From assembly GCA_045642645.1 (NCBI GenBank), contig JAZUJG010000094.1, forward strand, positions 1-29,750: DNA of 29,750 bases, in the 5' to 3' direction. Below the pieces are notes generated by a model. It did no database searches. It was not told the DNA's origin and worked only from the letters and a program-made list of their open reading frames with translations. This stretch comes from Acutalibacteraceae bacterium (lineage in GTDB: Bacteria; Bacillota; Clostridia; Oscillospirales; Acutalibacteraceae). The position numbers were made by a program, and so were the translations under genes. Below are positions 19,883-22,476 of this stretch, piece by piece. The number at the start of each line of letters is the position of its first letter. Position 1 is the first letter of the stretch.

Positions 19883-19892
19883 GTATACAAAT

Positions 19893-20000
19893 GAAACTTC
19901 AGGGCGAGGTGAAATTCCTCACCGGCAGTATAGTCTGCGAGCCTTACGGCTGATCGGGTGCAATTCCCGAACCGACGGTATAGTCCGGATGGAAGAATGT
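19893..20000 (+). ncRNA. FMN riboswitch (RFN element)
   Basis: CTTCAGGGCGAGGTGAAATTCCTCACCGGCAGTATAGTCTGCGAG...TGATCGGGTGCAATTCCCGAACCGACGGTATAGTCCGGATGGAAGAA matches the RFN consensus segments; lies upstream of an ECF S component. Confidence 0.96.
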
Positions 20001-20020
20001 TTCGCATCATTCTGTGATTT

Positions 20021-20669: not shown

Positions 20670-20698
20670 TTGACAAAACGTGTTAAACTGAATAAAAT
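20670..20698 (+). promoter_or_regulatory. sigmaA promoter of the ACP-like/proS operon
   Basis: TTGACA (20670-20675), 17 nt, TAAAAT (20693-20698). Confidence 0.8.
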
Positions 20699-20744
20699 TT
20701 TATACGGCTATCAGCTCAATTTAATATTTGGAGTGATTCTTTTA

Positions 20745-20978
20745 ATGGTGTTCGAGAAAGTCAAACGAATTCTTTGTGAGGAATTTGATGTTGACGAATC
20801 TGAAATCTCACTTTCCGCAACACTTGAAGGCGATTTTGATATTGACCGCGAAACGGATATTTACGATCTTGTTATGTCGCTTGAGGATGAATTCAGCATT
20901 GAAATAACCGATGAAGCTCTTGAAGAAATCTCAACATTGGGTGACCTTATAAGCTACATCGAAGAAAACATTGAATAA
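20745..20978 (+). CDS. acyl-carrier-protein-like protein lacking the phosphopantetheine serine
   Basis: 77 aa from the ATG at 20745 (GGAGTG RBS); MVFEKVKRIL..EF.VDE.EI...LVMSLEDEF.IEITDE..E.I.TLGDL..YI, very acidic; DSLD appears as DRETD. Confidence 0.85.
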   Translation: MVFEKVKRILCEEFDVDESEISLSATLEGDFDIDRETDIYDLVMSLEDEFSIEITDEALEEISTLGDLISYIEENIE

Positions 20979-20990
20979 GAGGATTTTAAA

Positions 20991-22430
20991 ATGGCAGAAC
21001 AGAAAAAAATGGTAGAAGCGATAACCTCTATGGAGGATGACTTCGCACAATGGTACACCGATGTTGTAAAAAAAGCAGACCTTGTTGACTATTCAAGCGT
21101 CAAGGGCTGTATGATAATTCGCCCCTACGGCTACGCTATATGGGAGAATATACAGAAAATTCTTGACACCCGTTTCAAAGAAACCGGTCACGAAAATGTA
21201 TATATGCCCGTATTTATTCCCGAAAGCCTTTTACAGAAAGAAAAAGACCATGTTGAAGGCTTTGCACCCGAGGTTGCCTGGGTTACTCACGGCGGCAACG
21301 ATTTGCTTGAAGAAAGACTTTGCGTAAGACCTACATCCGAAACGCTTTTCTGCGAGCATTATGCAAAAATAGTTCAGTCATACAGAGATTTGCCGAAGCT
21401 CTATAACCAGTGGTGCAATGTTGTCCGCTGGGAAAAGACAACCCGTCCGTTCCTGCGTACACGCGAATTTTTGTGGCAGGAGGGTCACACAGTACACGCC
21501 ACCGCAGAGGAAGCGGTCGAAGAAACCGAGCGTATGCTCAATGTTTACGCCGATTTCTGCAAAAAGTCACTTTGTATGCCGGTAGTTAAAGGCAAAAAGA
21601 CCGAGAGCGACAAATTTGCAGGCGCAGTTGCTACATACGCCATTGAGGCGCTTATGCACGACGGCAAGGCGTTGCAGGCAGGTACTTCTCACTATTTCGG
21701 CGACGGCTTTGCAAGGGCATTCAATATGACCTTCCAAGACAAAGATAATAAACTTCAGTATGTTCACCAGACCTCGTGGGGTACGACAACACGCCTTATA
21801 GGTGCTGTTATTATGTCACATGGAGATAACAACGGTCTTGTATTGCCGCCGGATATTGCCCCGATTCAAGTCGTAATCGTTCCCATTGCGCAGCACAAGG
21901 AAGGTGTGCTTGATAAAGCCTGCGAACTCAAAGACAAACTCGCAAAGTCATTCAGAGTAAAAATCGATGCAAGCGAACAGTCGGCAGGTTGGAAATTTGC
22001 CGAATACGAGATGAAGGGCGTGCCCATTCGTCTTGAAATCGGTCCCAAAGATATCGAAAATAATCAGTGCGTACTTGTAAGACGCGACAACCGCGAAAAG
22101 ATTTTCGTTTCACTCGATAACCTTGAAGATGGCATACAGAAAGCTCTTGATGCTTTTGCAGAAGCTATTTACAACAAAGCACTCGACAACCTTAATAACA
22201 GAACATTTGCCTGCACAAGCCTTGATGAAATCACCGAAAAGCTCAATGCAAACGGTGACGGATTTGTTAAAGCCATGTGGTGCGGCAGCGAAGAATGCGA
22301 AGATAAAATCAAGGAGCTTACAGGTGTCGGCTCACGCTGTATTCCATTTGAGCAGGAAAAACTTGCAGATACCTGCATCTGCTGCGGCAAACCCGCCGAG
22401 TGTATGGTATATTGGGGCAAGGCATATTGA
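20991..22430 (+). CDS. proS: proline--tRNA ligase (archaeal/eukaryote-like type, no insertion editing domain)
   Basis: 479 aa; [50 protein letters not shown]-terminal Cys motifs and terminal AY. Confidence 0.97.
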
Positions 22431-22440
22431 TTGTAAATTT

Positions 22441-22476
22441 AAAAGAACGGTTTTCGTTTTCGGAAACCGTTCTTTT
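22441..22476. terminator. bidirectional intrinsic terminator (proS / dapA)
   Basis: AAAAGAACGGTTTtcg-tttt-cggAAACCGTTCTTTT, about 16-bp stem with A/T tails on both sides. Confidence 0.9.

Follow-up and report, generated by a model that had tools for sequence, protein, structure and literature searches.

The acyl carrier protein (ACP) presents its helix II as the surface that binds Fab enzymes, SpoT and MukB (PMC3340395, PMC8602292). Apo-AcpP is sufficient to stimulate MukB (PMC8602292), binding of Escherichia coli IscS needs the Ser36 site of ACP (PMC13343975), and PlsC canonically uses acyl-ACP (PMC10146087). In Plasmodium, the mitochondrial ACP (mACP), with Phe in place of Ser after type II fatty-acid synthesis (FASII) was lost, stabilises Isd11-Nfs1 and was proposed to be a cofactor-free binding module (PMC8547962). 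Non-lipid roles of ACP are hard to study because the carrier role is essential; in the bacterium described here the two are naturally separated. A literature search, incomplete in its coverage, yielded no paper on a bacterial Ser-less ACP.

The window, that is the whole stretch of 29,750 nucleotides analysed, contains a Ser-less ACP gene (acp) at the head of a two-gene unit with proS. The features of the unit are as follows.

20670..20698, + strand: sigma-70/sigmaA-type promoter of acp-proS, TTGACA-17-TAAAAT (11/12 consensus match)
20730..20735, + strand: ribosome-binding site of acp, GGAGTG (from the sequence)
20745..20978, + strand: acp, Ser-less AcpP orthologue of 77 aa (ORF call, PF00550, AlphaFold2 model)
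20847..20849, + strand: Arg35 codon CGC, a lineage-specific one-residue insertion (alignment)
20850..20852, + strand: Glu36 codon GAA, in place of the phosphopantetheine Ser (column of the 86-ACP genus alignment)
20856..20894, + strand: helix II, residues 38-50, the partner-recognition helix of ACP (model and alignment)
20978..20983, + strand: ribosome-binding site of proS, AGAGGA, overlapping the end of the acp stop codon (from the sequence)
20991..22430, + strand: proS, prolyl-tRNA synthetase (ProRS) of the archaeal/eukaryote-like family I, without the INS editing domain (TIGR00408, Pfam)
22441..22476, + strand: intrinsic terminator hairpin ending the acp-proS unit (terminator prediction)

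The terminator is probably bidirectional and shared with dapA. The leader of the unit is short and lacks a T-box, and an Rfam search of the window gave an FMN riboswitch as its sole match (19891-20005), located upstream of an ECF S-component (RibU-like) gene; an ORF called from 19881 in the riboswitch region probably has its true start later. ProRS is 479 aa long and belongs to family I (TIGR00408, 609 bits), with no Pfam match to the tRNA_edit domain. It is encoded 12 bp downstream of acp, of which proS is a co-transcribed, ancestral neighbour, and no fab genes are found near the locus. A first, sequence-only reading had described the acidic ORF, its own promoter and ribosome-binding site, the 12-bp spacing, the absence of fatty-acid genes nearby and a ProRS type without the editing insertion, and these descriptions hold.

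The acp product is strongly acidic (26 Asp/Glu versus 4 Lys/Arg; 33% acidic residues). It matches PF00550 with 34.7 bits (cut-off 20.8) and scores under every cut-off of the NCBIfam ACP models. The four-helix ACP fold is indicated by both the PF00550 match and the AlphaFold2 model (pLDDT 93), which superposes on the Thermotoga apo-ACP 6LVU with a TM score of 0.90 and an rmsd of 1.0 Å (Foldseek/model superposition). The Ser of the DSL motif is missing; the motif is D34-R35-E36-T37-D38, Glu36 stands in the Ser column, and the closest Ser residues lie at positions 24 and 45. Across the 86 ACPs of the genus this column holds Ser 40, Glu 42 and Asp 4 times. The D-R-E-T-D motif, with CGC at 20847-20849, had been read as a replacement of Ser by Arg next to a one-residue insertion. 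Loss of the Ser and the insertion both stand, but the insertion is the Arg itself: its column is a gap in every Ser row and in 43 of the 46 Ser-less ones, and the extra residue is common only to this species and its two nearest species, which read DWETD. By alignment, then, the actual replacement is Ser to Glu, and Arg35 is a local insertion. A sequencing error or a recent AGC-to-CGC change is ruled out by the nine other members of the 90% cluster (ENA/Logan assemblies), of which eight read DRETD and one, a strain with His at residue 35, DHETD, and by codon 35 being TGG (Trp), not AGC, in the nearest relatives. The divergence, as first suspected, is real.

The 77-aa protein is the only PF00550 match in the genome (assembly 92% complete), and a single match is likewise found in most of the Ser-less genomes without a phosphopantetheinyl transferase (PPTase). 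The search for a canonical acpP elsewhere in this genome, which the sequence-only reading had called for, gave nothing, and the single match lends no support to its idea of a decoy, for which a second, canonical ACP would be needed in the genome. Orthology to the housekeeping acpP is supported by position, the locus being the same as that of the GADSLD ACPs of PlsX-bearing congeners and of other genera. Profile searches of the genome returned no PPTase (PF01648), no ketosynthase (PF00109), which is the enzyme that the FASII search covered, and no PlsX (PF02504), PlsY (PF02660) or DegV (PF02645). By synteny, no acpS lies between obgE and nnr, which are assembled on contig C242, and plsX is simply gone from between trmFO and rnc, assembled on contig C194. 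Because both flanking pairs adjoin on assembled contigs, these two losses are not assembly gaps. At the former acpS position there is an unrelated short ORF of ~86 aa with its own promoter (G000:C242:4530-4790). Neither FASII, as judged by ketosynthase, nor PlsX was thus found to load or use acyl-ACP. PlsC is present. The remaining lipid genes comprise, besides plsC, those for CdsA, a CDP-alcohol transferase, two DAG-kinase-like proteins, GDPDs and an MBOAT; motif scans of the genome, which are weak evidence, found no FakA and gave no convincing GpsA. From this inventory, membranes would seem to be built by an undescribed route out of salvaged lysolipids or diacylglycerol. The genome also encodes, after a leuA-like gene, an 820-aa fusion of an AMP-binding acyl-CoA ligase with an N-terminal domain that by eye resembles a sugar-phosphate isomerase TIM barrel (L179:646-3108, G000:C358).

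With the Ser absent and a PPTase not found in the genome, phosphopantetheinylation by the known route is not possible, as had been proposed at the outset. That the protein is still a carrier, modified at Thr37 or elsewhere by an unrecognised enzyme, is most improbable. The fold and helix II are retained, as is PlsC, canonically an acyl-ACP-using enzyme (PMC10146087), but PPTase is absent here and in 29 Ser-less genomes, and E. coli ACP with the S36T substitution is not modified (PMC3340395). Thr37, which had been offered as a substitute site, is not conserved: 39 of the 46 Ser-less rows have Leu or Ile at position 37, and 6 have Thr. The database label of these Ser-less proteins is 'acyl carrier protein', which can mislead metabolic reconstructions.

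Among 98 genomes of the genus, ketosynthase was strongly matched in 2, and PlsX was found in 8, PlsY in 6 and PlsC in 97. Seven of the PlsX genomes have an acp-proS locus; the ACP of each is canonical, with GADSLD, and the seven fall on one branch. The comparison of orthologues, which the sequence-only reading had asked for, upholds loss of the Ser at 46 of the 86 acp-proS loci (42 Glu, 4 Asp) and not at the other 40, where it is kept. Of 82 single-locus genomes, 25 have a short AcpS-type gene, and the Ser is kept in every one of these; none of the 44 Ser-less genomes has such a gene (29 are without any PPTase and 15 have only a long Sfp-type one), the two types being assigned by open-frame length alone (< or > 150 aa); the genomes are kin and not independent, hence no p-value is claimed for this association. 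The long Sfp-type PPTase mostly co-occurs with other carrier domains. Thirteen genomes keep the Ser without AcpS, and replacement by Glu or Asp occurs only in AcpS-less genomes of the genus. Loss of the Ser is accordingly joined to loss of FASII and PPTase, as in Plasmodium mACP. In G043, whose ACP still reads DSLD, the acpS-like match contains internal stops (G043:C23:22812-23063), possibly an intermediate stage of AcpS loss. Two genomes have two acp-proS loci each, G079 (L076 = G079:C66 and L071 = G079:C7) and G101 (L111 and L114), with discordant ACP and ProRS affinities, which reflect contamination or recombination.

Two other genera without ketosynthase and PlsX, g124 and g38, have Tyr and Asp at the site, respectively; at further unplaced loci the residue is Glu in three cases and Tyr in one. 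Loss of the Ser therefore recurs within the family. A Ser-bearing control genome from outside the genus has PlsX. No match came from scanning metagenomes with the query of a Ser-less ACP of another lineage. The number of events depends on the tree: the proS tree requires 10 changes of Ser state, or 15 losses if these are irreversible, and the ACP trees only 4-5. A single clade of Ser-less rows is rejected by the proS tree (p-AU 1e-48) but not by the short ACP trees (p 0.10 and 0.13). On these trees, acp may have been exchanged between congeners, or Glu may have reverted to Ser.

Linkage to proS is conserved at the 86 genus loci, as had been expected, but canonical ACPs have the same linkage. 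Canonical DSL ACPs stand directly before proS at 40 genus loci, at 7 of the 27 loci that were sampled from other genera, and in another family. In other lineages, Ser-less ACPs with Glu, Tyr or Asp are found in the order acp-HAD-proS, usually after ftsZ (L252-L255, L287-L292), and some of these loci have a bacterial-type ProRS with an editing domain. The arrangement ftsZ-acp-HAD-proS is found with ProRS of both families and with Ser-bearing as well as Ser-less ACPs, and it appears to be ancestral. Since the linkage is common to canonical ACPs and to either ProRS family, inheritance by position fits better than a co-evolved interface, and by gene order the linkage of acp to proS is not special. 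In one congener, G102 (90% complete), acp is cleanly deleted and proS is kept, with a similar promoter directly before it; no PF00550 match was found elsewhere in that genome. ACP is therefore, to judge from this genome, dispensable in G102. G102 has three tandem plsC copies at L185 (G102:C27:6485-10921) and five in all (another site is L230, G102:C44). Five further genomes (G048, G051, G064, G103 and G057) lack both an acp-proS match and a family-II proS, and the four tested lack a family-I proS too; since proS is also missing, absence of the locus there probably reflects assembly gaps.

A partnership with ProRS had been drawn from the gene order; on this view the synthetase would be regulated or chaperoned by a dedicated acidic protein that mimics tRNA. 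The 12-bp gap, the common promoter and the linkage in 86 loci would suit it, as would the Ser-less ACPs that other lineages have upstream of a bacterial-type ProRS. It is nevertheless very unlikely, because canonical carriers have the same linkage, within the genus and beyond it, the apparently ancestral order is found with either ProRS family, and G102 retains proS with acp gone.

The dN/dS of the Ser-less ACP was 0.17-0.19 (15 disjoint pairs, chosen on the proS tree; bootstrap 0.13-0.24), compared with 0.05-0.065 where AcpS is present and 0.27-0.35 for Ser-bearing ACP without AcpS; for this species and its nearest relative it was 0.10. Constraint on the Ser-less ACP is thus about 3-fold weaker than on a functional ACP. 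None of the 46 Ser-less ORFs has a stop or frameshift. On a tree with 13 substitutions/site in all, no change is seen at D41, M44, E47, D48, F50, E53 or E73 and one at D38, and D41, M44, E47, D48 and F50 of helix II, with E53, are invariant across the 46 Ser-less orthologues. Site 36 changed only twice, by Glu/Asp exchanges alone, whereas acidic sites of helix I and the first loop changed 4-14 times each. The invariance of F50, and perhaps of E47 and D48, may have a structural cause. Taken together, the substitution patterns indicate purifying selection on the Ser-less ACP, concentrated on the acidic helix-II face, which makes the protein-binding role proposed earlier the likely function.

That dN/dS is relaxed once AcpS is gone (0.17-0.35, against 0.05) is also what a slow vestige would show, that is, a partnerless protein kept at the head of the essential proS transcript, with selection merely for a folded, harmless product until clean deletion. 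The loss in G102, the ancestral position ahead of proS and the disappearance of the known partners PlsX, AcpS and the Fab ketosynthases all agree with this explanation, which has some weight but is on the whole unlikely. Against it, the surface acids of helix II do not vary, in contrast to the free variation of those elsewhere on the surface, and no copy among the 46 is pseudogenised. Moreover, proS has its own ribosome-binding site and deletion is feasible, as in G102, yet 86 of the 87 examined proS loci have acp. Finally, the change from Ser to Glu or Asp at site 36 needed 2-3 nucleotide changes, and the site has stayed acidic within the genus.

By analogy with Plasmodium mACP, the Ser-less ACP is probably a non-carrier binding module with a putative partner. 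The protein is the housekeeping ACP of the lineage, its carrier role having been lost probably in the order FASII ketosynthase, then PlsX/PlsY, then AcpS, then replacement of Ser by Glu or Asp. What is left would be an acidic four-helix module without cofactor, helix II of which docks on a basic patch of the partner and stabilises or modulates it, as mACP does Isd11-Nfs1 and apo-AcpP does MukB. Glu or Asp may take the place of holo-ACP's phosphodiester charge; alternatively, it may suit the N-terminal start of helix II or reflect the acidic composition of the protein. Tyr at the site in one genus shows that an acidic residue is not obligatory. With acp deleted in G102, the role would be useful and not universally essential. 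PlsC is the only classical ACP-docking enzyme found left; PlsC, when compared between Ser-bearing, Ser-less and acp-null genomes, revealed no diagnostic change. IscS was set aside as a partner, as an iscS-iscU pair was not found and binding of E. coli IscS needs Ser36. The PF00266 matches in the genome are a NifS-like protein encoded beside thiI, a desulfurase-like protein encoded beside ispF/cdaA-like genes, and SerC. A MukB-type partner is not expected in this bacterium. It is conceivable, and is put forward tentatively, that ACP has a second, phosphopantetheine-independent function with a partner outside fatty-acid synthesis, that several lineages independently fixed a genetically encoded stand-in for the modified Ser, mostly Glu or Asp, after the loss of FASII, PlsX/PlsY and AcpS to keep this interaction, and that membranes are made by ACP-independent lipid salvage.

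The genus offers a graded loss of the pathway. The series starts with canonical ACP accompanied by PlsX, PlsY and AcpS; at the next stage AcpS alone accompanies ACP, then AcpS is missing too, then the Ser, and last comes deletion of acp. Through this series a carrier-independent role of ACP becomes directly testable. The genomes further imply that a common gut lineage makes phospholipid without FASII, PlsX or PlsY. The protein resembles the bacterial ACP that serves type II fatty-acid synthesis (AcpP/AcpA; PF00550, TIGR00517) in synteny, a continuous sequence series, fold and acidic helix II; it differs in being Ser-less (Glu36 plus the insertion) and below the NCBIfam ACP cut-offs, with AcpS, ketosynthase, PlsX and PlsY not found. 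With E. coli AcpP bound to MukB, SpoT and IscS (PMC8602292, PMC3340395, PMC13343975) it would share docking of the acidic helix II on basic patches, although those partners use a canonical, modifiable ACP, and the desulfurase-like proteins here have other neighbours than an IscS system. Plasmodium falciparum mACP has Phe at the site, is essential and has a proven partner, Isd11-Nfs1 (PMC8547962), whereas here the site holds Glu or Asp, the host is a gut clostridium, one congener is acp-less and the binding partner is putative. The likeness between the two is that each was kept after the loss of FASII and PPTase, with its Ser replaced (PMC8547962).
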